The notes: generated by a model not told the origin, from the letters alone. Shown: positions 37,001 to 55,851, counted from the first letter of the stretch. The stretch: 64,000 nucleotides of DNA from an uncultured delta proteobacterium (GCA_963737905.1 CAVTUQ010000037.1:160001-224000), one strand, 5' to 3'. Program-made: numbers and translations.

Positions 37001-39717
37001 ACGCGGAAGGACAGCGGCGTTACATCGACAGCCTTTCCGCTTATGCGCGGCAGTTTCTTCAGATCATGGCGAAGCCTAATGTCGATCTGCTCGCCGGTAT
37101 ACCCCCGACGGTCGCTATCGAGCAAAGGCTCAGCCAAGGCGGCAAGAAATCGACCGTTGCCACGGTGACGGAGATCTATCACTACCTGCGGCTGCTCTAC
37201 TCCAAAGTCGGAAAACAGCACTGCGTTCAATGCGGCCGGCAAATTCGGTCTCTCAGTCGCAGCCAAATCTTCGATCGCATCGGTCGTTCCTATCGCGGCA
37301 AAGAGGTGATGATCTTGAGCCCCATCGTGCGCGGGCGCAAAGGTTTCCACAAAGAAGTCATCGCCGGCGCGCGACGGTTGGGTTATCGCAGGGCGCGTAT
37401 CGACGGCGAGCTGCTCGATCTCAGGGCGCCTCAGCTTACCCAGGGTTTGGAGCGGTTTAAGGAGCATGACATCGACATCGTGATCGGCAAAGCGAAAGCG
37501 GGCGGACGCGATGTTGAGGCGCTGGTGGATCAGGGGCTCCGCATTGGGAACGGCGTGATTCATCTCATATCCGAGCGGGGTGAGCAAATCTTCAATCAGC
37601 GCCTTTTCTGTCTCCGGTGCGGCATCGGCTATGAGCCCCTCGATCCGCGGCTGTTCTCTTTCAACAGCCGGCAAGGGGCTTGTTCAGAATGCGGCGGCAT
37701 GGGCTTTCAATGGGACTTCGATCCTGGACTGCTCTTCGCCAATCCGCGGCAGTCGGTCAGCGAAACTTTAAACGGCATTTCCGCTTTCACCTCAGAAAAT
37801 GGAACCAGCCTGCGCCGCTCTATGGAGCGTCTTCTGAAAGAATTGGCGGAAAAGCACAACATCGATATCGATAAGCCTTTCGGACGCCTGGCCAAGAAAA
37901 CGCAAGAACAAGTGCTCTACGGCACCAGTGGCCGTTCCGGATTTGTCGGCTTCATCCCTCATCTGCGAGAGCTATGGCAGAATGGCGAAAAAGACGGAAA
38001 CCAGGATCTCGCAGAGCTTTTGAGCGAATCTCCCTGCGATAGTTGCCATGGGAGAAGACTCAATTCACGGGCTCAAGCCGTGCGCGTGGACGGTAAGTCG
38101 ATTTGGCAGCTCACGGCGCTGTCGGTACAGGAGTCCAAAGACTATTTCGACTCATTGCAGCTCGCCTACGCCGATAATGGCGCTGCGGAACGCGACCGCG
38201 CGGTGGCGGACAAGATTCTTAAAGAAATCCAACAACGACTCACGTTCCTCTCGGAAGTCGGTTTGCCTTATCTGACCCTCGACCGCCGTGCGGACACGCT
38301 GTCCGGCGGTGAGGCGCAGCGCATTCGGCTTGCAGCGCAACTTGGATCGAATCTCCGCGGCGTCTGCTACATCTTGGACGAACCTACGATCGGTCTTCAC
38401 CCGCGCGACAACGCCATGCTGCTGCGCACCCTGCGCCGGCTCGGGGCAGTCGGTAACAGCGTGTTGGTGGTCGAGCACGACGAGGCAACGATTGAATCCG
38501 CCGATCTCATCGTCGACCTCGGACCGGGCGCGGGTGTTCGCGGCGGGAACGTTGTTTCTATCGGATCGCCCACGGAGATCAGGAACAACCCCAATTCTCT
38601 TACGGGAATGTTTCTCAAAGCGGAGCGCAAGCGGCTCGGCCCGACGCGTGAACTTAGTAACACTAATTGGCTCACCATCCGAGAAGCAAAAGCTAACAAT
38701 CTCAAAAACGTCGACGTGCGCTTGCCGCTCGGCATGTGGACCTGTGTCACGGGGATCTCCGGGTCAGGAAAAAGCACTTTGGTCAAGGAAATCCTTTACA
38801 AGGGCCTGAAGACAAAGATCGGCCAATTCGCCGGACGGCCGGGCGCGCACAGGGAGATTATCGGCTGGCAGTCGCTGGAACGAATCGTCGAGGTCGATCA
38901 AACCCCCATCGGCAAAACTCCCCGTTCTGTCCCGGCCTCTTATGTCGGCTTGTTGGACGAGATCCGCAAACTTTACGCGCTCGCGCCGGAGTCTCGGCTG
39001 CGAGGCTACACCTCGAGCCGATTTTCATTCAACGTCCGAGGCGGGCGTTGCGAGGAATGCGCGGGCCAGGGAAAAATTCGCAAAGAGATGAGTTTCTTGC
39101 CGGATGTCTTCGTGGATTGCGAGGTCTGCGGCGGCCAGCGGTTCAATGAAGAGACGCTCAGCATTCGTTACAATGATAAAAATATCGCCGATGTTTTCCA
39201 CATGACCGTAGAAGAGGCCGTGCCGTTCTTCCACGCCATTCCAAAAGTCGCCCGGCCACTCAAGATCCTCGATGACATCGGCATGGGCTACATCACACTC
39301 GGGCAGGCCAGCAACACGCTATCCGGGGGTGAAGCGCAGAGAATCAAGCTTGCCTATGAGTTGGGCAAGGAGTCCCATGGGAAAACCCTCTACGTTTTGG
39401 ATGAGCCCACCACAGGGCTCCACTTTGTCGACGTGGAGAAACTGATTCACATTCTTCATCGTCTGGTGGAAATGGGCAACACGGTTGTCACCATCGAGCA
39501 CAACCTCGACATCGTAAAGGACGCGGATTATCTAATCGACCTGGGACCTGAAGGTGGCGAACAAGGCGGCTACGTCGTCGCCTGCGGCCCGCCCTTGGAA
39601 GTTGCCAAAGATGGTAAGCAATCCCATACGGCTCGATTTCTCCGGGAGTACCTCAATGGCGGGCCGGCGAAATCATCCGGCGACGTTACGACGGTACATC
39701 ATGAAGAAGTAGCATAG
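34036..39717 (+). CDS. uvrA: excinuclease ABC subunit A, double-length (two fused UvrA units)
   Basis: 1893 aa; four Walker A motifs (GVSGSGKST, GVSGSGKSS, GLSGSGKSS, GISGSGKST), four LSGGE signatures, repeated FSFN and Zn-finger motifs. Confidence 0.95.
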   Translation: MSQNWIDIRGAKQNNLKNLDLQIPLNALTVITGVSGSGKSTLAFDILYAEGQRRYVESFSAYARQFLDRMDKPDVESIEGIPPTIAIDQSRPVRTSRSTVGTMTELHDHFKLLFSKIAVLHCRGCDRIVERDSAQTVLAKLSSLPEATPIVVTFPLAPSSLPWDEVKSGLQQAGFHRLLMERDIHDLIEIGVAPPSDATLEVIADRVAYRPGNKKRISDSLEQAFHYGKGRLNLFFPQENWRREPISNHLHCPHCDISYRDPVANLFSFNSPLGACETCRGFGRVIDIDLDLVIPDPGKSLNEGAIKPWINRTRRTRRLLDFCDRKRIPTKKPFGDLTEKQKQLILEGDGDYKGIRGWFRRLERKSYRMHVRVLLSRYRAYLLCPDCQGSRLKPDALQYRIEGKDVAQVNAMNVGEAHRFFTQLKPAGAKDQIASLILDEIRRRLSYLVGVGLEYLTLDRQSRTLSGGELERVDLTTAIGSSLVNTLYVLDEPSIGLHPRDSRRLVEILHRLRANQNTVVVVEHDPEIIKESDYIIDLGPKAGEQGGQVMFAGSYHDLLKNEESLTAAYLSQRKMIPFPSRNRKQLLQRSIKITGAHANNLKNIDVEIPLGVFVCITGVSGSGKSSLVDEVLHRNLKKLKEAPSANIVHCAKIEGVDKISEVVLVDQSPVGTTPRSNPVTYMKVFDAIRRLFAIADLSRMRGYTPSTFSFNVEGGRCETCRGEGFEKIEMQFLSDVYTSCPECHGSRYREEVLEVTYRGKNIRRILDLTVSEAMEFFKDLPEIKEGLYPLRAVGLEYVRLGQPLTTLSGGESQRLKLAAHMAKAKKAGTLFVFDEPTTGLHFHDIDRLLWAFNELIDQGHSVVVIEHNLEVVKCADHIIDLGPEGGDGGGCIVATGTPEQISRVESSHTGVYLRPYLKKAAPSPFTPLLEKRSRIQEFRGSTAENAITIVGAKEHNLKNISLAIPRDRFVVITGLSGSGKSSLAFDIIYAEGQRRYIDSLSAYARQFLQIMAKPNVDLLAGIPPTVAIEQRLSQGGKKSTVATVTEIYHYLRLLYSKVGKQHCVQCGRQIRSLSRSQIFDRIGRSYRGKEVMILSPIVRGRKGFHKEVIAGARRLGYRRARIDGELLDLRAPQLTQGLERFKEHDIDIVIGKAKAGGRDVEALVDQGLRIGNGVIHLISERGEQIFNQRLFCLRCGIGYEPLDPRLFSFNSRQGACSECGGMGFQWDFDPGLLFANPRQSVSETLNGISAFTSENGTSLRRSMERLLKELAEKHNIDIDKPFGRLAKKTQEQVLYGTSGRSGFVGFIPHLRELWQNGEKDGNQDLAELLSESPCDSCHGRRLNSRAQAVRVDGKSIWQLTALSVQESKDYFDSLQLAYADNGAAERDRAVADKILKEIQQRLTFLSEVGLPYLTLDRRADTLSGGEAQRIRLAAQLGSNLRGVCYILDEPTIGLHPRDNAMLLRTLRRLGAVGNSVLVVEHDEATIESADLIVDLGPGAGVRGGNVVSIGSPTEIRNNPNSLTGMFLKAERKRLGPTRELSNTNWLTIREAKANNLKNVDVRLPLGMWTCVTGISGSGKSTLVKEILYKGLKTKIGQFAGRPGAHREIIGWQSLERIVEVDQTPIGKTPRSVPASYVGLLDEIRKLYALAPESRLRGYTSSRFSFNVRGGRCEECAGQGKIRKEMSFLPDVFVDCEVCGGQRFNEETLSIRYNDKNIADVFHMTVEEAVPFFHAIPKVARPLKILDDIGMGYITLGQASNTLSGGEAQRIKLAYELGKESHGKTLYVLDEPTTGLHFVDVEKLIHILHRLVEMGNTVVTIEHNLDIVKDADYLIDLGPEGGEQGGYVVACGPPLEVAKDGKQSHTARFLREYLNGGPAKSSGDVTTVHHEEVA

Positions 39718-42354: not shown

Positions 42355-44036
42355 TCATAGCGAGATAGAAAGAATCCCCGCGGTTTGGAGTGCCTGTGCT
42401 ATAAGCGCGACGCCGAAGACAAGAATAAAAGCCGACGAAGTCAACGGCAGCCACCGGGTCGTTAGCGGGCTATTAGTTTCGAAACGTGACATAAACTCGC
42501 GCGCATAAACCATCAAAAGACCAATGGTAATCAGAACCACAGCTAATCCAACGCTGAATGCGACGATCAAAAGCAACCCAAAGCCAATTCGCCCCATCGA
42601 AACGGCACTCAAGAGTACCACTAGCGCCGCCGGGCAAGGAACGATGCCGCCACTAATACCCAACGTCAAAAGTTCCCGGTAAGACACTTGTCGGTCGCAT
42701 CGTGATCTGATGAAGCTGGCCATGAATGCAATGGCGTGACACGTGATGATGATGGTGATGGTCGTGGTCATCGGGCCATGAGAATGTTTCTATGGTGTTG
42801 GTGATAATGATTCGAGAGCCCGTCCTTGCCTAGATACCTCCGCACCAAGAGGACCGCACCTAATCCGGTGATCAGGACACCGGAAACCACGCCTAGCCAG
42901 GGATAAAGCCGCTCCGGCACGATGTACTGTGAAGCGTACAAGGTCACCCCGCCAAGCAAATATACTCCAGCCGTATGCGCCGCAGTTACAATCAATCCGA
43001 GCAAAAACGCATGCTGCAAGTTCCCACGCGAACCCACAAGATACGCAGCAACTAAAGTTTTCCCGTGACCAGGCTCCAGGGCATGAAACGCGCCAAGGCC
43101 TACAGCAACGCCAAGAGCGATTAAGATAATCCCAGATCCAATTCTCCGTTGCTATCAACTCCGTAAACGAATTCCGTGGCGTCGTCTGTTGATTAGCTTG
43201 TAACTGAACTGCGCTCATTTTCTTTTGTCCGGTCGTATCGGCATCGATAATGGCGGGTTTAGATTATTCGCGTAGGAATGGATTGTTTTACCGGCTCCGA
43301 CCTGCTGGAATCGTGTGAAATCCTGCACGCGTCTATCTGAAGCTTGTTAACCGGGATCGCTTTCTCTCGGGAGCCTCGAATCAACTCCGAGAGCTCGCCG
43401 TTGATGCGACGGCGCAGGCGCAACCGCAGTGCTGAATGTCACATTGGCTTCCAGGTCCTGCGGTGGGCTGTTCAACAGATCGGTGGGATAGTTATTAACT
43501 GGGAGCTGCGATCGAGATCAGGAACCGAGCTGTCCGATATTCTGGCTCCCGGACGCTGCAATCGCGATGATCTCTTTCCAGCCCGCCCGTCCAGGGAAAT
43601 TGCCGTCACGATAGCTGAGTAGATAGTCGGCGGGGTTCGAGTCGCCTATGAGCTTCGCTTTGTACAGAAAACCGACTTTCATTGTCGGCAGACCACCGGC
43701 CCCCGGCGGGAAAATGATCTCCCTGGATTCTGCTCGCAGATCGAGACGTTTACCGTTGACCTCAAGCGCCAAGCCATCGCGAAGCAGTTCGGCCTTGCGC
43801 TGAAGATAAGTGCTTAGACTCGAATCTCCTGTCTTCGGTACAATCCCATTTTCTTGAATCTCTTGAAACGTCGGGATCTCGGCCATATCGATCAGGTAGC
43901 GCAATTCAATTTCATTCCCGCCAATACGGAGCGCGCTATATTGGCTGATGCTAAAGTTGCCGAGCGGATGGGCCGAGCCGCTTTCGGTAAAGGCGAGCAG
44001 CATGAAGGCAAGCAAACCGACAATCAGGAAGCGCAT
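42355..44036 (-). CDS. RcnA/NicO-like Ni/Co transporter fused to an N-terminal extracytoplasmic domain; multiple frameshifts
   Basis: Signal peptide then HPLGNFS; HALEPGHGKT (about 43060-43090), His-rich loop (about 42720-42810) and GISGGIVPCPAALVVLL RcnA signatures in successive frames. Confidence 0.82.
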
Positions 44037-44040
44037 GACC

Positions 44041-45357
44041 TTACCTCCTGTCCAGTGGTTGCCGCAGAGCAGCCACTTGATCTTCGGAATTTTCTAACTC
44101 TACTAAGGTGCGCTTGGCGTTATCGGCGAAAAAAATATGAAAGTGTGGATTGATCGAGAGCGCCCGACGGAGATGCTCCTTGGCTTTTCCTTTCTCCCCG
44201 AGGCGGTGATAAATCATCCCGGCATGGTAGTGAAGCTTCGCGTCTTGGGTGCCTAATTTGAGCGCCTGTCTCACGGCCTCGCGTGCTTCCTCAAATTTGC
44301 CGTTCTTGAATAGGTTCCAGGCCAGGACATCATAGGCATAGATATCGCGCCGGTAGTTTAATTCCCGCTGCGCCAACTCCAGTCCTTGTTGCAGCTTGAT
44401 GTCGTGATCGGCATAGAAATAGGCCAACTCCCGATTGTAGAGAGCCTTATTGAGCGCGCTCAGTTGCCCGATGTACTCCACTAACTCGTATTGCTTGCGT
44501 GCCTCGTTTGGATTTCCGATCTTGGCGTAGACATCGCCTAGCGCAGCGACATATTCAGGCATCGGCACGGTGTTGATCGCTTCTCGATAAAGCTGAATAG
44601 CTTCCGGGAAACGCTCCCGCGCCGATCGCACCTGTGCCAGCCCAGCTAGAGAACGATAATATCCGGGGTAGGTCTCCAGCGCTTGCACGTATTCACTTTC
44701 GGCTTGAGCCAATTTGCCGATGGCATAATATTCCGCAGCAAGCTGCCACTGTGCCCAGGCAATACTTTCCTTCGGCTGGTTTTCTTGTTTGCCTAGTTGA
44801 ATCGCCGTCTTCAAATCAGAGATCGCTCCAGGGGTGTCGCCCTTCAAGCTTTTTATGCCCGATAGCCGGCTGTACGACGAGAGACTTTCCTTTAGAGTCA
44901 TCATCCTCTTGTAGGTTTCTTCCGCTTGCTCATATTTGCCGGTTTCGAGATACGCATCGCCGAGAACGCCATGAGCATCCATGTCGGTTGGGTCCAGCGT
45001 GATCGCCTCTCGGGCTTGGGCTGCGGCAGCCTCAAAATCGTGACGCGAAGCCAATACATGAGCCAAATGGCGCCGAACACCGCTTAGCTGGGGATTGAGG
45101 CTTAAAGACTTTCTCAACGCCTGCTCCGCGAGATCGAGGTAACTGTTATCGCCGCTTTCTCGGGATTTTTGGAGATAGGCGTCTCCCAGTTGGTAATACG
45201 CAATCGGATTATTCGGATTGCGACGAATTTTGAATTGTGATTGAGCAATCGCCCGGTCAGAGGCCGAAGAGGCGGACCAGGCAAGTTGGGGTGACAGCGA
45301 GACGATCAAGAGAAAGAGAAATAGAGTTGGCGTGCTATATTTTGGTCGTTTTTCCAT
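44041..45357 (-). CDS. secreted tetratricopeptide repeat protein
   Basis: Signal peptide; many TPR helices (AYYQLGDAY, AHGVLGDAY, HYHAGMIY); GGAGG RBS before ATG 45357. Confidence 0.88.
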   Translation of the reverse strand: MEKRPKYSTPTLFLFLLIVSLSPQLAWSASSASDRAIAQSQFKIRRNPNNPIAYYQLGDAYLQKSRESGDNSYLDLAEQALRKSLSLNPQLSGVRRHLAHVLASRHDFEAAAAQAREAITLDPTDMDAHGVLGDAYLETGKYEQAEETYKRMMTLKESLSSYSRLSGIKSLKGDTPGAISDLKTAIQLGKQENQPKESIAWAQWQLAAEYYAIGKLAQAESEYVQALETYPGYYRSLAGLAQVRSARERFPEAIQLYREAINTVPMPEYVAALGDVYAKIGNPNEARKQYELVEYIGQLSALNKALYNRELAYFYADHDIKLQQGLELAQRELNYRRDIYAYDVLAWNLFKNGKFEEAREAVRQALKLGTQDAKLHYHAGMIYHRLGEKGKAKEHLRRALSINPHFHIFFADNAKRTLVELENSEDQVAALRQPLDRR

Positions 45358-45422
45358 ATCCCCTCCCGAGCGGTGAAGGGGCAGCCCCGTCGAATCGGTG
45401 AGGCCACCCCCTCGCATTAATT

Positions 45423-47054
45423 TTAGTCCACCGGACAGTCCGTTGCCGCAAAAGGAACGATTGGTTGGGCGCAGCCGGAAGTGCTGGGACTTTGATGCCG
45501 GCTATTGCGGCCACTGTTAGCAAAAGCCACGTAAGGGAACGTTTCCTGATAGGACCTATCGTTGCTATTCACGCCATCGCCGATCCGGTTGTTGGGAAAG
45601 CCGTCGAAAGGGGGGCCGGCTAAAACGCCGACCACGGCTCGCGCCGATATATCGGTCACATCATCGGACACACGACGTCCATTGGGATATCCGGCGAGGT
45701 CTCCGACTAGTACTCCCAAGCGTTTCCGCTGGTCCTGGGGCGTGGGACCTATGCCTGTGTTCAGACGCAGCAAATCGGCGATCGGGCCGGATTGCAGACC
45801 GGAGCATCCGGGGCAAAGCACGGTCGTATATTGCACCAACGGCGCCAAATCTAGCCGTGGCGGAGAAGGGATCGGTACGGCTCCGCCGTAGGCCGCATTG
45901 ATAACCCGTGCCAGAAGTGGATCTAACAAATAGTTGCTGAACTGCGCGTCATCTTCGGGCTCACTCATGCTGAATTTGTCTTTGTCGCCAGTGCCGATGA
46001 TCAACTCGTTGATCAGCGCATTTCCCATCCGCTGAATCTGCACGACGTTCGCCGACAGGACTGACTTTCCACCGGGCGTTCCGGGCAAGGCCTTAACTCG
46101 CGGGCGCGATGTGGTACCGTAGGTGCCGATCAAAGCCATGGGATCGTTCACAGGATGGATCGCGCCATCTTTTGTGAGCATCGCGATCGGCACCTCGATG
46201 GCAATCGAGTTGACATTGAAGCCTGCCACGGCATCCGGGGCGAAGTTCTTGTTGTCGGCCAAGTCCTGATCATCCGTCAGTACTCCCGGAACCCCGGTCC
46301 CAAACGCACTCGGACGGAAATTGAGCGTATCAAAGGCGGCGCCGAGATCGATATAAAATGGATCATCCACTGTGCCAGCAAAAACTCTAACGCCATTACC
46401 AAGGTCGTAGATGCCCTGGCGGGCCACGTAGTCGTAGTTCGGCATCGTCCTAGGACCGACATTTGAGGGAACGGCGATTAATTTTCTACCAGTGCTCAAA
46501 TCGGTCGACCGCCAACGGTTGCCGACCTTTTTCAGCAGCGCGACAGTATAAGTCTGGCGCAGACTCAAGCCTTCCGATCCTGGTCCGTCCAATGCCGTGA
46601 TGGCCGGGGGAATCAGCGGAGTCCCGGGCGGCAGCGGGGATGGCGAGTTTACCGGTGTAGAAACGCCATCGCCGACGCCGACAAACCCGGTGAAAACGTC
46701 AGGCAGTCGTACCTCCGTTTTGAAGCGGAACTGAATCTTGACATCTTCTTTGGCGTCTTGATTGTTATCGATTTTCATTTCGTAGAGAATTTCCGGGTCA
46801 AACGGAAAATAATTGGGCCCGTTGGCCGGCTCCAATAAAGGATCGACGTTCAAAATCATCGTTACCTTGGTTGGGTCGTCATAGCTGACAAAGGCAAACC
46901 AATCGGTGATATCCGCTTTGTTGTCCAAAGCGGTAATCGGTGCCTCTCGATGGTTTGCCGCCCGAGCAACCGGCACTGTTGTCACAACGGTCATCAGGGC
47001 GGTCAGAAAAGTGGCGACACATTGATAGAATGAATTTCTCCGCAAACGTTTCAT
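45423..47054 (-). CDS. DUF4331 family secreted protein
   Basis: ANHREAP, DITDWFAF, FAGTVDDPFYIDL, RMGNALINELII, GYPNGRRVSDDVTD, FPY motifs. Confidence 0.85.
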   Translation of the reverse strand: MKRLRRNSFYQCVATFLTALMTVVTTVPVARAANHREAPITALDNKADITDWFAFVSYDDPTKVTMILNVDPLLEPANGPNYFPFDPEILYEMKIDNNQDAKEDVKIQFRFKTEVRLPDVFTGFVGVGDGVSTPVNSPSPLPPGTPLIPPAITALDGPGSEGLSLRQTYTVALLKKVGNRWRSTDLSTGRKLIAVPSNVGPRTMPNYDYVARQGIYDLGNGVRVFAGTVDDPFYIDLGAAFDTLNFRPSAFGTGVPGVLTDDQDLADNKNFAPDAVAGFNVNSIAIEVPIAMLTKDGAIHPVNDPMALIGTYGTTSRPRVKALPGTPGGKSVLSANVVQIQRMGNALINELIIGTGDKDKFSMSEPEDDAQFSNYLLDPLLARVINAAYGGAVPIPSPPRLDLAPLVQYTTVLCPGCSGLQSGPIADLLRLNTGIGPTPQDQRKRLGVLVGDLAGYPNGRRVSDDVTDISARAVVGVLAGPPFDGFPNNRIGDGVNSNDRSYQETFPYVAFANSGRNSRHQSPSTSGCAQPIVPFAATDCPVD

Positions 47055-47138
47055 GACTGATTTTCCTTTCTGTCTGTTTGTGTACCGATGCAGCCCACCA
47101 GGGCTGGTCACTCCAACCCTGGTGGAGTTCCGCGTCTA

Positions 47139-47789
47139 TTACCGGCTCGCAAAACGCTCGGGAAATTGTTTGACGATCGCGGCCGCGAGCGGGTCGGCGA
47201 TCATCCCCATGTGGCCGGCGGCAGTGCGAATCGCCGTATAGCTCTTGTTCATATCGCCGGCCGCTTGGGCGTCGATCACGTCCTTGAGTGTCAAAACGTG
47301 ATCCTTCACCAAGCCGGCGACGACATCCTTCGGAAGATTCGGATTCGCCGAGGCGAGGAATGCGCCAAAATCTTGCGTGTACTGGACCAAATCGTTGACC
47401 GCCTTGCTTTTCTTAGCATCGTCTTTGGTGGCAACACCGACCGTATAGTCCACGACAAAGCCGATATGCTTGCGCCACAAAGGTAGGAACGCTTGTTCCG
47501 CGCCTTGGCCGTAGACCAAGCCGATGGCTTTGGAGATGTCGACGGAGTTGGCATCAAGCGACCCAGCGGCAGCTTTAAACTCGCCGTCACGGCCAGCCAG
47601 GGCTGCACCCGTAGCTGCTGCTGCCAGGAAGACATGCTCTCGGAACAACGAATTCAGACCGGTTCTCAGATCTGAACTCATCGCTCCGTGATGGTTCAGC
47701 TCCGCTGACTTCACATTCGCCGTGTAGCCAACGCCCAAGAGCGCCACCACTACGGCAGTCCCTACGAATTTTCTTAAATTACTATTCAT
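47139..47789 (-). CDS. secreted His-containing helical protein of unknown function
   Basis: Signal peptide; FREH, LWRKHIG..VDY, KDH, GHM and KQFPERF motifs; AGGAGG RBS. Confidence 0.7.
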   Translation of the reverse strand: MNSNLRKFVGTAVVVALLGVGYTANVKSAELNHHGAMSSDLRTGLNSLFREHVFLAAAATGAALAGRDGEFKAAAGSLDANSVDISKAIGLVYGQGAEQAFLPLWRKHIGFVVDYTVGVATKDDAKKSKAVNDLVQYTQDFGAFLASANPNLPKDVVAGLVKDHVLTLKDVIDAQAAGDMNKSYTAIRTAAGHMGMIADPLAAAIVKQFPERFASR

Positions 47790-47840
47790 TTTCTCCTCCT
47801 ATTGGATTTGTTAATCGGTCGCCGTCATTTTCTGATAACG

Positions 47841-48254
47841 TTACTTGACAAGGATTCGGCCACGCATGGATTGGTGGCGTTCGCAAAAGTATTCGTACTC
47901 ACCCGGGTGATCGAAAGTGAAGCTGGCCGTGGTACTTTTGCCGGAAAGGCTGAGACTCACTGACCCATTCCGGTTTTCCGGTGTACCCAAGGTGACGGTG
48001 TGCTGGATGTCGTCTTCATTGACCCAGGTTACCGTCGTGCCGGCTTTAACCTCCAATTGTGCAGGCTGGTACTGGAAGAGTTGAATCGTAACCGCAGATC
48101 CCGACTGGAAACGTGGGCCCACACTTTCACCGCTCTCAGCACTGGCTGCTTGAGTCTGAAGAATGTCGTCACATTCATCGTGTGCAAGCAGCGGTGAACT
48201 CCCCGCCAAGATTGCCGCGGTTAAGACTGCGGAACTCCGCCAATACCTCTTCAT
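47841..48254 (-). CDS. cupredoxin (plastocyanin/amicyanin-like type 1 Cu protein)
   Basis: GTTVTWVNED..QHTVT and YFCERHQSM give the H,C,H,M ligands; signal peptide. Confidence 0.88.
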   Translation of the reverse strand: MKRYWRSSAVLTAAILAGSSPLLAHDECDDILQTQAASAESGESVGPRFQSGSAVTIQLFQYQPAQLEVKAGTTVTWVNEDDIQHTVTLGTPENRNGSVSLSLSGKSTTASFTFDHPGEYEYFCERHQSMRGRILVK

Positions 48255-48314
48255 GAAACCTCTCCTTGCCTGTCGGTTGTCCGTCAAACTGACCTTGACC
48301 TCTCATGTTTTCTC

Positions 48315-48340
48315 TACGCGTCTGTCTGGCGATTCGGATT
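48315..48340 (-). promoter_or_regulatory. ECF-type promoter driving the cupredoxin-DUF4331 operon
   Basis: Minus strand AATCC-N17-CGTA. Confidence 0.65.
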
Positions 48341-48385
48341 GCCGAAAAGAAAATTTTGTCGATTAAAAAAATTCTTATAAGAGTA

Positions 48386-48411
48386 AATCCAAACCCATCG
48401 GCGCGATCGTA
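48386..48411 (+). promoter_or_regulatory. ECF-type autoregulatory promoter of the sigma/anti-sigma pair
   Basis: Plus strand AATCC-N17-CGTA, same boxes and spacing as the divergent copy. Confidence 0.65.
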
Positions 48412-48598
48412 TTAAGTCTGGGATGTGTTTGCGCAACGGGAATCGATTGGCCTAGAATGCCTCGCGACAAGGGAGAGGCCGTGACTCACGAAGCAGGGGT
48501 AGATCTGCCGTACCTACCCCGAAACGCAAGCTGAGGAAATGTTTCTTGTGCTGATCATGACCTCGACGCGAGGCGACATACGTGCATAGGTACTGTCA

Positions 48599-49159
48599 GT
48601 GACTGCCGATCCAACCATCGCCGTCCGTCTTATCCAGCAGGTCGCGAATCAGGACCGCGACGCCTTCAGCCAGCTTTACGATCGATTCTCGACCCTGGTC
48701 TTTACCATAGCCATGCGGATCCTGAAGGCTCGTTCAGACGCCGAGGATTTACTCCAAGAGGTTTTCGTCCAAATTTGGCGGCAAGCGCAGAACTACAAGG
48801 CCGAGCGGGGCAGTCCGGAAGCATGGATTGTTAATATTGCGCGCAGCCGGGCAATCGACAAAATACGTTCTATACGTAGAATGGAAAAGAGCTTCGTCCT
48901 CACCGACGATCCAGCGCGCGCGGAATCGAGCGACAACGTAGAATCATCAGCGGCGGAGTCGGAGACCCGGTTGACGATGAGCAACGCTTTGGCAGACTTG
49001 CCCGAGGCCCAGCGCAAAGTGCTGGAGCTGGCCTATTTTGCCGGCCTGACCCAGACCGAAATTGCCGAACGCTTGGCAGAGCCTTTGGGCACAGTCAAGA
49101 CCAGGATGCGCTCCGGGATTCAGCGTCTCCGCGAGATACTCGGAACACAGGCGACGTAA
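48599..49159 (+). CDS. ECF sigma factor (SigK-like)
   Basis: DAEDLLQEVFVQIW, AWIVNIARSRAID, PLGTVKTRMR. Confidence 0.92.
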   Translation: MTADPTIAVRLIQQVANQDRDAFSQLYDRFSTLVFTIAMRILKARSDAEDLLQEVFVQIWRQAQNYKAERGSPEAWIVNIARSRAIDKIRSIRRMEKSFVLTDDPARAESSDNVESSAAESETRLTMSNALADLPEAQRKVLELAYFAGLTQTEIAERLAEPLGTVKTRMRSGIQRLREILGTQAT

Positions 49160-49932
49160 TGAGTAACGAACACGAACATTGGCAAGAGCATAGTGAAATC
49201 TATGCCCTCGGCGCACTCGATGGGCAGGAGCTGAAAGAATTTGAAGCTCATCTGGCCTCCGGCTGCGCCATCTGCGAAGCCTACGTCCGGGAGACGCGCG
49301 AGACGCTGGCCGTGCTTCACAGGTCCCTACGTCCGGAGGTGCCGCCGCTAGCCATTAAGGCGCGCGTTCTGGAGCAGATCGCGCCCCAGGCGATTGCGCG
49401 ACCGAGACAGGAAAAAGCTCCACGGTTCAATTGGAATTGGTGGGGTTTAGGTATCGGTGCCGTTGCGACTGCGGCAGTCGCCTTGGTTTTGACTTCCAAC
49501 CTGACACGCACCCAAACCGAGCTTGAAAAGGCTAAAGCGCAACTCGCCGCCGCGCAAATCGAATCGGCGCAAAAAGACGAGCTGCTTCAATTGCTCTCTT
49601 CCCAAGACGTCCGACTGATTGAGCTCAAAGGTCTCGAAGCGGCGCCGGCAGCCAGAGCTAAACTATTCTGGAACCCCGGCGCACGCAGTGGAATCTTGCT
49701 TACCAATGGACTCCCCAAGACGTCAACCGACAAAGCCTACGAACTATGGGGAATCGTGGGCAAGGAACCGGTTCCCGCGGGAGTTTTCCGCGTCGACGAT
49801 CAGGGCCAGGCAAGATTTCGTATGCCGGTCCTCGCCCAAGGAAAACAATTCGACAAATTCGCCGTAACTGTCGAACCTGCGGCCGGCGGGGAAAAACCTT
49901 CCGGCCCGATGGTTTTGTTAGGAAGCCTCTAA
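49159..49932 (+). CDS. RskA-type anti-sigma factor with N-terminal zinc-binding motif
   Basis: YALGALD..E..EFEAHLASGCAIC, single TM, C-terminal YELW and FAVTVEP..G..PSG; coupled to the sigma gene (TAATG). Confidence 0.9.
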   Translation: MSNEHEHWQEHSEIYALGALDGQELKEFEAHLASGCAICEAYVRETRETLAVLHRSLRPEVPPLAIKARVLEQIAPQAIARPRQEKAPRFNWNWWGLGIGAVATAAVALVLTSNLTRTQTELEKAKAQLAAAQIESAQKDELLQLLSSQDVRLIELKGLEAAPAARAKLFWNPGARSGILLTNGLPKTSTDKAYELWGIVGKEPVPAGVFRVDDQGQARFRMPVLAQGKQFDKFAVTVEPAAGGEKPSGPMVLLGSL

Positions 49933-50229: not shown

Positions 50230-52415
50230 ATGAGCCTGCTTACTATTATGTGGTCGATCGCTGGGGCGATGTGCCTCACCCTTGCTATCGTGCACGGTGT
50301 GATATGGATCCGCCAGCGACACCACGCCTGGGCCAATTTGCTATTCACTTTTGCAGCGTTGGGTGCCGCGGGCTCGTCGTTCATGGAGCTGTGGGGGCTT
50401 CACGCCGACAGCGTCGAAACATACGTATTGGTGGCTCGATATCAGAATATTTGCGTCTTTGCTTTATTGGTCGCGCTTATCTGGTTCGTCTATGTTTACT
50501 TTGAAACCGCCAATCGATGGCTCGCGCTGGCGATAACCGGCCTGTGGGTTATTTCGATCATTGTCAACTTTCTGTCGCCTCATAGTCTCACCTTCTCGGA
50601 AATCACCAGTTTGAAGCGCATCGCGCTGCCCTGGGGTGAAGACTTTGCGGTCCCCGTCGGCACCACCAACCCCTGGACGTCTGTCGCTAATTTCGCTTCT
50701 GTTTTACTCGTAATTTTCGTGGCGGATGCCTCGGTGCGTTTGTGGCGGCGCGGCGACCGCCGCCGGGCTGGAATTGTGGGCGGAAGCATTCTGTTCTTCA
50801 TCGATTGCTGCTGGCATTCATACCCCTTTGGTCGACGAGGGTATCATCCAGACACCTTACATGATTTCGTTCGCCTTCCTGGCGATTATCTTTGCCATGG
50901 GATTCGAGCTCATCGACGATGTTCTTCGGGCGTCGATCTTGTCGAAGGAAGTTGCAAGCAATGAGCGTCGTTGGCGGGCATTATTGGACAACGTCCAACT
51001 TCTCGTTGCGGGCGTCGATGACCAGGGTAATTACAACTACGTCAATCCGTATTTCTGTTCGACCCTCGGCTATACTCCCGACGAAATACGGCGGCGGCAT
51101 TTCACTGACGTGATCCCATCCACCGCGAGCGAACCCATCGGGCAAGAATTTCAGCATGTAATGGATCAGGAGAAAGCGATACAACCGCGGCGCGATCTTG
51201 TAATGCGTACCAGGGGGGGCGACTTAAGAAAGATCGTCTGGTCGAACGTGACGCTGTATAACCGTGACGGTCGCCCGGCCGGGGTACTGAGCATCGGGGC
51301 CGACGTTACAGTTCAGAGAGAGGCGGAAGAAGGCCTGAAGACAGCCTTGGAGGAGATTCAAGAACTCAAGGAAAAACTTCAAGCGGAATGCCTCTACCTG
51401 CGCGAAGAGATCAATGTCAAAAATAATTTTGGCCGGATTGTTGGCGAGAGCGATGCCTTAAAATATGTGTTGATGCGGGTTGAACAGGTCGCCCCGACGG
51501 AATCTACGGTGCTGCTCTTGGGAGAGACAGGCGTCGGTAAGGAACTGGTCGCCCGTGCGATCCACGATATGAGTCGCCGCTCTCGCGCGCCGCTCATCAA
51601 TTTAAACTGCGCGGCGTTGTCTGAAACTCTCGTTGAAAGCGAACTCTTCGGCCACGAAAAGGGAGCATTTACCGGGGCGGAGCGTCAGCATAAAGGCCGC
51701 TTCGAGATCGCTCACGGCGGCACGATCTTGCTGGACGAGGTAGGCGAGTTGCCGGCGGCCACTCAGGCGAAACTGCTGCGTGTCCTGGAGGAAGGCGAGT
51801 TCGAGCGAATTGGCAGCGGCACCACGCTCAAGGTCAATGTCCGCGTCATAGCGGCAACCAACCGGAATCTGTACCAGGAAGTCGCTGCAGGCAGGTTCCG
51901 GCAAGATCTTTTCTATCGACTCAACGTTTACCCGATCACGATCCCGCCATTGAGACAGCGCCGGGAAGATATTCCGCTGCTGGTTGAGTATTTTGTCCGA
52001 GAAATTGGCACGCGGATGGGAAAGGAATTCAAAGCGGTGCCGGCCGTGGTCCTGCGTGAGCTGATGGAATACCACTGGCCTGGAAATATACGAGAACTGG
52101 AAAACGTAATCGAGCGCGCGGTGATCATTTCGCCGGCCGGGGTACTGCGCTTGCCGGAGCCCCTCGTCCGGGATGAACCAAAGCTACTCCGACGAAGGTT
52201 ACCAAAATGGTACTGCGGAAACTTTACAGAAGGTTGCGACACTGGATGAGGCGGAAAGGCAGCATATTTTGCGCGCTTTAGAGGCCACGGGTTGGCGCAT
52301 CAGCGGCCCCAACGGCGCGGCAGCGATGCTCAAGCTCAATCCCTCTACCTTAAGATTTCGCATGAAGAAGCTCGGTCTAGGTCGAAATCGGAAAAACCAA
52401 GCAGAATACCATTGA
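50230..52415 (+). CDS. membrane-anchored PAS + sigma54-dependent (Fis-family) activator; frameshifts near 50805 and 52185
   Basis: Multi-TM N-terminus, [56 protein letters not shown]. Confidence 0.87.
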
Positions 52416-52489: not shown

Positions 52490-53494
52490 ATGAAGACCAA
52501 TTTGGCATTTGTCTTATGGGTCTTGTTGACGGCCACCGGCGCCGCCCATGCAAATTTGACTCGACCGCTGGCAAAGGACGGCCCCACGCCTATTTTCGTA
52601 TCGGTGTACGTTTTGGACATTGATGAAGTGAATAGCGCGGATCAAAGTTTCAAGGCAAACGTCTTCTACCAAATGCGCTGGCGCGATCCAAGCTTGTCGC
52701 ATCGCGGACCCGGCAAAGTGCGCCGGCCGTTAAACGAGGTTTGGCACCCTGGGCTGCAAATCGTCAGTCAGCAGCGGGTCTTCCCCACCTTTGCGGAGCT
52801 GGTGGAGATCGCGCCCGACGGAGAGGTCTTATACCGCCAGCGCGTATGGGGGTCTTTTTCGCAGCCGCTTAACGTGCGCCGATTTCCGTTTGACCGACAG
52901 ATTTTCAATTTGCATTTCGTGTCAGAAGCCTATCGACCCGACGAGGTCGAACTGAGACAAGATACGCAGGTCAAGTCCGGCATTGCCGACGTTCTTTCCT
53001 TCGCCGACTGGGATATTGTGCGCTGGGAGACACGGACAGAGGCCTATCGAACCAATCCGCAAGCTGAACCTATAGCTGGATTTGTCTTATCGTTCGAAGC
53101 CGCGCGACGCTACGGCTATTTCGTGCTGAAGATCATCTTGCCGCTGGTTTTCATCGTCGCCATGTCATGGGCAGTATTCTGGATCGATCCGCACGAAGGA
53201 GCAACGCAAATTTCCGTTTCCATCACCACCATATTGACCCTCATTGCGTACCAATTCTCGATTGGTCATGAGGTTCCTCGTGTGTCGTATCTGACTCGCC
53301 TCGATATGTTCATCCTCGGTTCGACCATCCTCATCTTTGGAAGTTTGGTCGAAGTCATGGTCACCACGGCGCTAGCAAAACGTGGGCAGGCCGAGAAGGC
53401 CCTTTTGCTTGACCAGTGGTCGCGTTGGCTTTTTCCGGCGGCGTTCGCAGTTGTGGTCGCACTGACGGTCCTTCGCGGCTACACAAATACATGA
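52490..53494 (+). CDS. prokaryotic pentameric ligand-gated ion channel (ELIC/GLIC-like)
   Basis: Signal peptide; WRDP, VWHPGL, Pro-loop RRFPFDRQ, M1 KIILPL, M2-M3 PRVSYLTRLD, 4 TM. Confidence 0.88.
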   Translation: MKTNLAFVLWVLLTATGAAHANLTRPLAKDGPTPIFVSVYVLDIDEVNSADQSFKANVFYQMRWRDPSLSHRGPGKVRRPLNEVWHPGLQIVSQQRVFPTFAELVEIAPDGEVLYRQRVWGSFSQPLNVRRFPFDRQIFNLHFVSEAYRPDEVELRQDTQVKSGIADVLSFADWDIVRWETRTEAYRTNPQAEPIAGFVLSFEAARRYGYFVLKIILPLVFIVAMSWAVFWIDPHEGATQISVSITTILTLIAYQFSIGHEVPRVSYLTRLDMFILGSTILIFGSLVEVMVTTALAKRGQAEKALLLDQWSRWLFPAAFAVVVALTVLRGYTNT

Positions 53495-54226: not shown

Positions 54227-54613
54227 ATGAATCGAAAACTAGTGAGCATGTTGTTTTTGATGACGTTTCTCAACGCTGGAGTCGCGGGTGCGGTCACGGC
54301 GGAGGATTTCGAAGTTAAGACCACACAGAGCTTACTAAACTTATGCGCGGTCTCGGCCAATGACCCGTTAGCAAAGGAAGCAATTCAGATGTGTCAGGGT
54401 TATTTGGTGGGGGCGTACGACTATCATATGGCTGAAAACTCGGGGCCCGGAGGACAACCGCTCGTATGTCTCCCCAAGCCCGAGCCGTCACGCAACGAGG
54501 TGACAGCGATGTTCGTCGCATGGGTAAAGGCGCATCCGCAATATATGAAAGAGAGTCCGGTTGAGACGGAATTCAGGTTCTTAACTGAGAAATGGCCGTG
54601 CAAAAAGAAGTAA
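54227..54613 (+). CDS. Rap1a/Tai-like secreted four-Cys protein
   Basis: Signal peptide; LLNLC, CQGYLVG, CLP, WPC pattern; GGAGG RBS. Confidence 0.72.
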   Translation: MNRKLVSMLFLMTFLNAGVAGAVTAEDFEVKTTQSLLNLCAVSANDPLAKEAIQMCQGYLVGAYDYHMAENSGPGGQPLVCLPKPEPSRNEVTAMFVAWVKAHPQYMKESPVETEFRFLTEKWPCKKK

Positions 54614-54636
54614 CCCGATGAATCCAAAGGGAGGAT

Positions 54637-54912
54637 ATGATGAATAAGATTGCAGCGTTTATGGTTGTATTCGTGCTTATCGTAGCGCTCAGCGGATGTA
54701 CGATGTCGGAAACCGGGCAACGAACTGCCAGTGGAAGCCTGATTGGCGCGGGCGCCGGCGGGATCATTGGCGCGATTGCGGGAAACGCAGGAATGGGAGC
54801 GGCCATCGGAGCAGGCCTCGGCGCCACCGGTGGTTTTCTCTACGGTAAGCACAAGGAAAGTGAGCAAGAAGCCTATCAGCGCGGGCGGACGGATGCGAGT
54901 CGGGGTCGGTAG
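54637..54912 (+). CDS. glycine-zipper lipoprotein
   Basis: LSGC lipobox; GAGAGGIIGAIAG..GMGAAIGAGLGATGG. Confidence 0.82.
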   Translation: MMNKIAAFMVVFVLIVALSGCTMSETGQRTASGSLIGAGAGGIIGAIAGNAGMGAAIGAGLGATGGFLYGKHKESEQEAYQRGRTDASRGR

Positions 54913-55005
54913 CTTTGCTTGGGATTTTTACTTGAGCGCGGTGGCGGCGCCACGGTGCGAAGCGATATCTCGACTCCACTCGGGGTCAGCCACGAGTGCC
55001 AACGC

Positions 55006-55851
55006 ATGAGTCGGAGGAGCAAAACCTTGAAACTCGCGTACATCGTCCAGTTTTTTGCCGCGCTAACCCTATTTGTTTTCTTTACAATCGAATCAGCACC
55101 AGCCCAACAAGACGATCTGCGCGCCAAGGCGCAGAACCCGGTTGCTAACCTGATTAGCGTGCCGTTGGAAAGCACGTTCGACTTTGGCGCGCCCAATGGC
55201 AGTGCCTATTTCTTAAACGTTCAACCCGTTATTCCGGTCACAGTCGGGGATTGGAACCTTATCAACCGAATCATCCTGCCGCTCATCTATGTTCCCGGCG
55301 AGATCGCCGGCACGCCGGATATTCCCGCTGGCGGCAAAGGTGGGGCAGCGTTTGGTCTTGGCGACATCAACTATTCGCTCTTCGCATCTCCAGCAAAACC
55401 TGGACAGGTGACCTGGGGGTTGGGTCCGTCGATCAACCTTCGCACCGCGACGGATACGCAGCTCGGTTCGGGTAAGTGGAGTGCCGGGCCAACGGCGGTT
55501 ATACTCACCCAGCCGAAGCCCTGGAGCTTGGGCGTGCTCGTACGAAATATTTGGTCGTTCGCCGGCGACTCCAAACGCGACAAAGTGAACCAGTTTCTGC
55601 TCCAGCCCTTCATAACTTACAACCTCGAAAACGGCTGGTATTTAACGTCTAACCCGGTCCTCACAGCTAACTGGGATGCCGGTTCCAGCAATCGCTGGAC
55701 GGTTCCTCTGGGGGGCGGAGCCGGCAAACTCTTCACGATCGGAAAACAACCGATTAACACAAGAGTAGAATTCTATTACAACGTCGAGCGGCCAGAGCTC
55801 GCACCGGACTGGGCAATGAAGTTCACGATTGCGTTTCTATTTCCGAAATAG
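55006..55851 (+). CDS. outer-membrane beta-barrel (MetA-pathway/phenol-degradation transporter-like)
   Basis: AQNPVANLISVP, GLGDI, LGSGKWSAGP, WTVPLGGG, C-terminal FLFPK; signal peptide. Confidence 0.72.
   Translation: MSRRSKTLKLAYIVQFFAALTLFVFFTIESAPAQQDDLRAKAQNPVANLISVPLESTFDFGAPNGSAYFLNVQPVIPVTVGDWNLINRIILPLIYVPGEIAGTPDIPAGGKGGAAFGLGDINYSLFASPAKPGQVTWGLGPSINLRTATDTQLGSGKWSAGPTAVILTQPKPWSLGVLVRNIWSFAGDSKRDKVNQFLLQPFITYNLENGWYLTSNPVLTANWDAGSSNRWTVPLGGGAGKLFTIGKQPINTRVEFYYNVERPELAPDWAMKFTIAFLFPK

Follow-up and report, generated by a model that had tools for sequence, protein, structure and literature searches.

Anglerases are proteins that begin with a histidine (His1) after removal of the signal peptide and that have been proposed to feed HupE/UreJ-2 permeases. 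In the fusions Ang-1 and Ang-2, this head is joined by a flexible linker to a membrane domain of the nickel permease family, and a function in metal capture has been proposed; anglerases bind Cu (Kd 74 and 62 nM) more tightly than Ni (220 nM) (Franco Cairo et al. 2025, PMC12537917; PDB 9GCE). A second type of described system, the SigK-RskA and ECF18/ECF19 regulons of extracytoplasmic function (ECF) sigma factors, is characterized by an RskA-type anti-sigma factor encoded at position +1, an ATC(C)/CGTA promoter, and exported members (accessible part of Casas-Pastor et al. 2021, PMC7826278). Here we describe a locus that resembles both. It lies in a window of 64,000 nucleotides from an uncultured delta proteobacterium (GCA_963737905.1 CAVTUQ010000037.1:160001-224000; positions are counted from the first letter of this stretch) and consists of a SigK-like sigma factor gene with its rskA-type partner and a divergent operon of five genes, which encode a cupredoxin, an all-helical protein, a DUF4331 protein, a tetratricopeptide repeat (TPR) protein, and a His1 domain fused to an RcnA/NicO permease.

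In its predicted design, the module corresponds to an anglerase-permease system that is controlled by a SigK-type sigma factor, but it belongs to neither of the two described systems. In contrast to Ang-1 and Ang-2, the membrane part is of the NicO/RcnA type: the intact permease of a related locus (L018) matches PF03824 of the NicO family (48.9 bits, cut-off 27.7) and not PF13795 of HupE/UreJ-2. The anglerase neighbours named in the accessible text of PMC12537917 are DUF4198, indigoidine A-like, PfkB, metallophosphatase, and DUF916 proteins, with no DUF4331, TPR, or ECF sigma among them. Unlike in the SigK-RskA and ECF18/ECF19 regulons, the sigma factor found here has no cysteine pair in sigma4, and the locus contains no fasciclin gene. 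DUF4331 is already listed, without a function, at position +2 of ECF18s13 and near ECF214s1, and the accessible part of that list does not mention the TPR protein, the permease, the cupredoxin, or the helical protein together with it (PMC7826278 supplement). DUF4331 and its accessions had no main-text mention in the literature searched, which lay outside subscription journals and most supplements.

We read the locus as an envelope system that captures copper, or else nickel, on exposed histidine tips and delivers it to a permease and to local copper proteins under the control of the sigma factor, and we regard this reading as having an even chance of being correct. What the sequence itself shows are the genes and their conservation, both promoter motifs, the histidine tips, and the type 1 copper site.

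A core of DUF4331, TPR protein, and metal permease in several phyla

To survey neighbourhoods, 72 DUF4331 loci (69, mostly from Acidobacteriota, and those of three genomes of the window's family) were searched by tblastn with the proteins of the window; some of these loci were short, and distant homologues were missed. The TPR protein was found near DUF4331 in 54 loci, the sigma factor in 25, RskA in 14, and the permease head in 11. A single locus had the helical protein, and none had the cupredoxin. A cluster of open reading frames (ORFs) of the TonB receptor type was present in 29 of the 72 loci, and such receptors occur in DUF4331 loci of both Acidobacteriota and Bacteroidota. On plasmids, for which 35 records were collected and 11 regions (10 of them annotated) were viewed, a TPR protein was annotated beside DUF4331 in four regions and HupE/UreJ downstream of it in four. 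Two of the 11 regions continued with a "nickel transporter" (Streptomyces) or a membrane protein labelled TauE/SafE (Nostoc), one had a TonB receptor after DUF4331, and one was without annotation. No cupredoxin was present in the 10 annotated regions.

Judged from gene order, the core of the system is DUF4331-TPR-metal permease, with a permease type that is swapped between lineages, so that NicO/RcnA, HupE/UreJ, or a TonB receptor serve as partners across phyla. This exchange of nickel transporter, TauE/SafE, HupE/UreJ, and TonB receptor points to a metal. The gene order of the module as a whole is far beyond chance. The preliminary description of this DNA had expected synteny in other genomes, which the survey bears out for the core. 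Of the genes grouped there, the cupredoxin (0/72) and the helical protein (1/72) are additions at the level of the family and lie outside the core shared across phyla.

The DUF4331 family has 4923 representatives at 50% identity. Members fused to carbonic anhydrase, cytochrome c, a type IX secretion tail, RTX repeats, or SLH domains were observed (P0145, P0158, P0140, P0169, P0181), and the last three kinds of fusion show that many DUF4331 proteins are displayed at the surface. Genes for sortase F or type II secretion adjoin some homologues. As a separate observation, the His1-head/RcnA protein of three loci of Acidobacteriota (L042, L057, L091) carries an additional NicO-like domain, which has a motif of the RHSTDPDH type.

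Predicted metal sites

A histidine at position 3 of a mature chain with a free N-terminal amine forms the amino-terminal copper and nickel (ATCUN) motif, a square-planar site for Cu(II) or Ni(II). We surveyed the N-termini of DUF4331 proteins with an anchor that was independent of this motif (residues 9-80, from which the sequence was read upstream) and that could be placed in 112 of 150 listed representatives. A histidine at mature position 3 without a proline at position 2 was present, within two residues of the expected place, in 109 of the 112. Where a leader was present, a -1/-3 site of the signal peptidase type directly preceded X-X-His in 98 of 101 proteins, with cleavage predicted by pattern. 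In the alignment, His3 is the sole conserved histidine of DUF4331, conserved cysteine or methionine is entirely lacking, and many aspartates and arginines are conserved. The predicted mature tip thus corresponds to an ATCUN-like site, and the earlier proposal that DUF4331 is a candidate secreted metalloprotein gains support from the conservation of His3.

The permease head of the window shows Ala|His-Pro at its predicted start, and Ala|His-Pro-(Leu/Met)-Gly-Asn-Phe is found in every listed homologue whose N-terminus is complete. In the cupredoxin, the type 1 copper ligands His95, Cys135, His138, and Met141 are intact, and C-x2-H-x2-M is found in every homologue listed. With its His...Cys-x2-His-x2-Met site, the protein resembles amicyanin and plastocyanin (amicyanin PDB match, E 1e-10). 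It differs from amicyanin in its score for TIGR02657 (51.4 bits against an equivalog cut-off of 110.2) and in an extra N-terminal His-Asp-Glu-Cys tail, and no amine dehydrogenase genes are in view near it. The invariant residues of the helical family are His52, His108, His164, and His193 together with Glu51 and Met194, and the four histidines are kept down to 28% identity.

As anglerases prefer copper and a type 1 copper site is part of the operon, copper is by analogy the more probable metal of the module, with nickel second. Nickel or cobalt, which the preliminary description named as the metals transported by RcnA/NicO proteins, is accordingly less likely.

Promoters and sigma factor

Both predicted promoters (Table 1) lie in the 311-base spacer between the cupredoxin and sigma genes. 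The motif ATC(C/T)-N16/17-CG(T/A)A faces the cupredoxin gene in all 30 scorable related loci, compared to a mean of 2.3 and a maximum of 8 of 30 in shuffled sequences. It also precedes 59 of 79 DUF4331 genes, 60-330 bases before the mature start (shuffles: mean 2.3, maximum 7). Of 83 loci, 4 were left out of this count because their sequence was too short or had no anchor motif; those scored are not independent of each other. Many of these DUF4331 genes have no sigma gene nearby, and most actinobacterial DUF4331 loci fail the strict pattern, which has 24 matches in a scan of the whole genome. The boxes agree with the predictions for ECF18/ECF19 in the accessible parts of PMC7826278 (supplement) and PMC13492112. 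With a conserved motif on both strands, the control of the operon by the ECF sigma factor that had been suggested before is supported as a prediction.

The rskA-type start codon overlaps the stop codon of the sigma gene, and the positions and family matches of the two genes agree with the coupled divergent pair noted earlier. The best NCBIfam matches of the sigma factor, PRK12519 (178 bits) and SigK PRK09646 (174.8 bits, cut-off 226), are both under cut-off. The anti-sigma factor exceeds the cut-off of NF052375 (127.6 against 100 bits) and stays below that of PF22618 (23.8 against 27 bits); its sequence shows an N-terminal H-x4-C-x2-C zinc-finger-like motif, a single membrane helix, and an extracytoplasmic RskA_C domain. 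The RskA-type anti-sigma factor at +1, its one membrane helix, ATC in the -35 box, and CG in the -10 box are ECF19/SigK-like features. ECF18 is described as restricted to Proteobacteria and as having two conserved cysteines in sigma4 (accessible part of the PMC7826278 supplement). The sigma factor of the window has no cysteine at all, and we rejected its assignment to ECF18.

In many related loci, a second anti-sigma factor with a zinc-finger-like N-terminus and a ChrR cupin (PF12973) is encoded between promoter and sigma gene (e.g., L131:620-1168). This gene is absent at 48412-48598 of the window, where X1 and X2 contigs span the short spacer without a gap. By eye, a remnant of the ChrR-type gene seemed plausible there, but a blastn comparison with L131 gave only a 14-base match (E 0.09) and thus does not support one. 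Two loci (L166, L169) carry two sigma genes in tandem.

Extension of the module in the family

The helical protein, which has 1806 homologues, is present in 17 of 90 genomes of the family, this genome included. In 50 mostly short loci that contain it, the cupredoxin was found beside it 44 times, DUF4331 38 times, and the sigma factor 32 times. A wider set comprised 13 regions from 12 genomes. All five genes with the sigma gene were present in eight of these regions (seven with RskA), in one the five genes ran to the contig end, and in four, from four genomes, sigma, RskA, cupredoxin, and helical protein occurred without DUF4331. The reverse subset, sigma-DUF4331-TPR-permease without cupredoxin and helical protein, is found in L016 and L018. 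Judging from gene order, the full module brings two sub-modules together under one sigma factor, and this arrangement is conserved at the level of the family.

In many related loci, a truncated haemoglobin gene (PF01152) follows the operon (L016, L127, L132, L144, L151, L158, L162, L167, L110-L113); in L016 and L163, its product has a leader of the lipoprotein type. The window lacks this gene, and the genome has a related one on another contig (G000:C34), which is split over frames. The family additions, namely the cupredoxin, the four-His helical protein, and the lipoprotein globin, favour copper and redox stress.

Elsewhere, the helical family adjoins ECF sigma factors or sortase F. A homologue with 81% identity (P0093) is named Candidatus Binatia, which is the likely affiliation of the window's organism. 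Database labels of the family read "copper amine oxidase" or "glycosyltransferase". In a Planococcus plasmid (L175) and in L157, helical domains occur in tandem, beside a class F sortase gene or together with an anchor that resembles LPXTG; no copper amine oxidase domain was detected in the helical proteins of these two loci that carry this label.

Fold and history of DUF4331

The model of DUF4331, computed from a 116-row alignment, reached a predicted local distance difference test value (pLDDT) of 93.7 and a predicted template modelling score (pTM) of 0.93. Foldseek gave no match at E<=0.001. In a wide fold search, the top neighbour was the carbohydrate-binding module CBM74 of Sas6 (7uwu, residues 274-579; Z 8.5, root mean square deviation 4.5 A, 198 of 511 residues aligned), followed by glucodextranase 782-1020 (1ulv, 5.6), BACUNI_03838 (4jpq, 5.3), EbdC (2ivf_C, 5.1), and CBM9 (1i82, 4.9), in a list in which antibody domains also score 4-5.6. 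The model is therefore a lead toward a beta-sandwich of the CBM9/DOMON-like superfamily with helical insertions, not a proof of membership. Haem-binding DOMON domains, such as EbdC and the cytochrome of cellobiose dehydrogenase, have conserved axial ligands, a methionine together with a histidine or lysine. Haem binding by DUF4331 was considered and dropped, as no methionine column is conserved in the alignment.

DUF4331 shares with its best structural neighbours, CBM74, CBM9, and DOMON, Asp-rich loops that may bind Ca. It differs from them by an identity of 10%, large helical insertions, the N-terminal X-X-His, and the missing haem methionine. The CBM74 of Sas6 is closest to CBM9, binds four Ca ions, and has a binding tryptophan (W373) that is 100% conserved (accessible part of bioRxiv 10.1101/2022.11.20.514607). 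In DUF4331, no tryptophan is invariant; of about 115 sequences, 103 have W or Y at position 280. For the helical protein, the single-sequence model was poor (pLDDT 57); a fold search with it returned generic helical bundles only, the best of which was a designed protein (Z 9.8), and the ESM Atlas gave only same-family clusters for the homologues P0121 and P0093. Neither DUF4331 nor the helical protein, nor either alignment, had a sequence match in the PDB.

In a midpoint-rooted tree of 31 DUF4331 proteins, which included no one-clade test, the copy of the window was placed among Methylococcales and other distant sequences (99/97), and 13 copies from its own family and from close metagenome kin lay apart from it (99/98). 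The DUF4331 proteins of L129 and L130 share higher identity with it (67-69%, partial sequences). In a quick tree of the TPR proteins, the window's TPR protein stays with its own family. A likely explanation is an exchange of the window's DUF4331 allele or hidden paralogy.

Proposed mechanism and alternatives

In the proposed mechanism, an envelope or oxidative cue would free the sigma factor from RskA, and in many kin also from the ChrR-cupin anti-sigma factor, upon which both divergent promoters would fire as in a self-activating regulon of the SigK/RskA type. Cleavage by signal peptidase would then expose the X-X-His tip of DUF4331 and the His1 of both cupredoxin and permease head. The tip of DUF4331, held on a large CBM9/DOMON-like scaffold, would bind Cu(II) or Ni(II), with the TPR protein as adaptor, and the anglerase-like head would pass the metal to the NicO/RcnA domain. 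Where bacteria with an outer membrane add a TonB receptor, this would import the metal from outside. In this family, the regulon would have gained the cupredoxin and the four-His helical protein as copper clients or buffers. If this is true, bacteria possess a natural ATCUN-type metal-capture pathway, anglerases extend to NicO/RcnA permeases, and SigK-type sigma factors gain a metal-handling regulon, with the four-His helical family as a second, as yet unnamed family of predicted metalloproteins.

Several points weigh against metal capture. RcnA itself is an exporter, so that transport may run in either direction. With 510 residues and many conserved aspartates and arginines, DUF4331 is large for a plain metal carrier, and the head of the L018 permease had no match among solved structures, with no anglerase chain (Ang-1 included) retrieved by phmmer up to E 10. 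As the window's DUF4331 belongs to another subfamily than that of its family, the pairing with the TPR protein is not tightly co-inherited. Two copies on roseobacter plasmids are surrounded by type II secretion genes, and neither a permease nor a TPR gene is in view there. The kin neighbours, a ChrR-cupin anti-sigma factor and a lipoprotein truncated haemoglobin, hint at redox stress as much as at metal, and the second DUF4331-like locus of this genome, described below, has redox content. In C. metallidurans, the predicted promoters of RpoP (ECF18) had no start site under metal stress or starvation (accessible part of PMC13492112), so that metal may not be the inducing cue.

An alternative, which sharpens the idea of the preliminary description, is that DUF4331 is a metal-dependent redox enzyme of the surface, a CBM9/CBM74-like sandwich with an N-terminal copper site that is matured by the TPR protein and the permease, with electrons supplied or withdrawn by the cupredoxin (or, at the second locus, by cytochrome c/GMC proteins). 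The glycan-binding and haem DOMON-type fold neighbours, the type IX, RTX, SLH, and cytochrome c fusions, the adjacent sortase F or type II secretion genes, the cytochrome c, GMC, and peroxidase genes of the second locus, and the many conserved aspartates and arginines speak for it. We nevertheless consider it unlikely, with the cupredoxin absent from all 72 DUF4331 loci and the 10 annotated plasmid regions, a single conserved histidine without conserved methionine or cysteine, a modest fold match, and no substantial oxidase activity of His-tip anglerases (accessible part of PMC12537917). Its far-reaching form, in which DUF4331 would represent an undescribed class of oxidative enzymes that act at the surface, depend on copper, and occur across many phyla, is more doubtful still. 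Such an enzyme would follow the design of lytic polysaccharide monooxygenases on a different site, an X-X-His CBM74/DOMON-like sandwich loaded by permease and TPR protein, with cupredoxin or cytochrome c/GMC as donor, and the four-His helical protein would add another novel family of copper proteins.

About as unlikely as the plainer enzyme is a loose regulon, in which each gene belongs on its own to an oxidative or envelope stress response of the SigK type, with the promoter in common but no single pathway, and metal binding amounts to detoxification or redox buffering. It would explain the mixing and matching, as in the four genomes with sigma-cupredoxin-helical(-globin) and in the reverse subset of L016 and L018, and it agrees with the occurrence of the helical family by ECF sigma factors or sortase F, with the redox sensing suggested by ChrR cupin and zinc-finger-like anti-sigma factors, and with the response of ECF18/19 members to light, redox, and solvents (accessible parts of PMC7826278 and its supplement). 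However, the order and tight spacing of DUF4331-TPR-permease are kept across several phyla, often without a sigma gene, which argues for a linked core. The best fold match, the Ca-rich CBM74, together with the Asp-rich loops, the W/Y at position 280, and the TonB receptors of Acidobacteriota and Bacteroidota, would suit a glycan-binding surface protein that captures carbohydrate with the TPR protein and a TonB receptor and whose histidine tip is structural. We judge this improbable, as no role in sugar uptake is known for NicO/RcnA and HupE/UreJ partners that carry His1 heads, and no recurrent glycoside hydrolase was seen among the top neighbour clusters, the unannotated ones of which were read by eye. 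Least of all do we expect a plain rcnA-like locus for Ni/Co efflux and resistance. It could draw on the RcnA motifs, the His-rich loop, a PRK10019 match (E 7e-16), and the statement that the ECF18 factor RpoP acts in Ni/Co resistance (accessible part of PMC7826278), but this match, that of a fragment, scores 58 against a cut-off of 195, no RcnR-type regulator is among the ORFs seen, and uptake-type HupE/UreJ or TonB receptors replace the permease elsewhere.

Gene set and the broken permease frame

The features of the module are listed in Table 1. Judged by eye, each of the five minus-strand genes encodes a leader peptide. The likely start of the cupredoxin is the ATG at 48254, and its predicted mature end opens with histidine. 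DUF4331 likely starts at 47054, with the predicted mature end Ala-Asn-His at 46958, and its PF14224 match spans model positions 2-419 of 421. The motifs of the TPR protein are conserved across 48 homologues. The frames of the permease gene contain the motifs HALEPGHGKT and GIVPCP and a His-rich loop.

Table 1. Predicted genes and promoters of the module
Feature	Position	Strand	Basis or remark
RskA-type anti-sigma factor	49159..49932	+	PF10099, 83.1 bits (cut-off 29.4)
SigK-like ECF sigma factor (ECF19-like)	48599..49159	+	Sigma70_r2 and r4 matches
Predicted ECF promoter toward sigma, AAATCC-N17-CGTA	48385..48411	+	Predicted autoregulation; motif in 27/30 related loci
Predicted ECF promoter toward five-gene operon, CAATCC-N17-CGTA	48315..48341	-	Motif in 30/30 related loci
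Cupredoxin, exported, amicyanin-like type 1	47841..48287	-	PF00127, 48.9 bits (cut-off 21.2); PF13473
All-helical protein of 216 residues, exported	47139..47789	-	No Pfam or NCBIfam match
DUF4331 protein	45423..47111	-	PF14224, 356.9 bits (cut-off 27)
TPR protein, exported, of the subfamily that follows DUF4331	44041..45417	-	TPR Pfams; likely start 45357
His1 extracytoplasmic domain, linker, and RcnA/NicO permease	42355..44036	-	Frame-broken

Positions, strands, and leaders agree with the five exported, co-oriented genes of the preliminary description, except that the RcnA-like fusion is split over three reading frames and is not one ORF. Alignment to the intact relatives L016 and L018 places the breaks between about 42770 and 43555, where at least nine small indels disrupt the frame. 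In the contigs of run X1, single-base indels relative to the window are found at 43129, 43141, 43376, 43385, 43412, 43496, and 43553; two further indels lie near 42775-42795, and X2, X3, X6, and X13 differ from the window at part of the same sites. The first 480 and the last 415 bases of the gene are free of indels. Most likely, the broken frame is due to a locally poor consensus, i.e., sequencing errors, which is the simplest reading. A true pseudogene was judged less likely, because all indels fall within about 800 of the 1680 bases, the matching permease frames showed no in-frame nonsense codon, and related strains differ at the indel sites. Among 45 other gene loci, a set that includes some overlapping ORFs, two were frameshifted relative to relatives; the neighbouring regulator gene and a globin gene elsewhere in the genome look split, too.

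Second locus and neighbouring genes

A second, distant DUF4331-like locus is present in the same genome (L019:5017-18999; G000:C9, about 81000-95000). It encodes an X-Asp-His DUF4331-like protein, a TPR protein, a His1-HupE/UreJ-2 fusion, a 908-residue cytochrome c, a second DUF4331-like protein, a 357-residue protein, a GMC oxidoreductase, and an animal-type haem peroxidase. The strict promoter motif was not found just upstream of it, so that control shared with the window's module is unsupported. Parts of this second locus recur in two further genomes (G023, G025; L020-L022).

Downstream of rskA, the window contains a split-looking gene with seven transmembrane segments, a PAS domain, and a sigma54-activator domain in two overlapping frames (50230-52249), without a match to a C-terminal helix-turn-helix domain, and a prokaryotic pentameric ligand-gated ion channel (52490-53494; PF02931 and PF02932). 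A Rap1a-like immunity protein, a glycine-zipper lipoprotein, and an unannotated, probable outer-membrane protein of 310 residues are encoded in a row at 54227-55851. On the other side, at 34036-39717, lies a double-length UvrA-like gene (1893 residues, labelled by eye); in several kin, this gene flanks the module together with TfoX, MOSC, and PEP-mutase-family genes.

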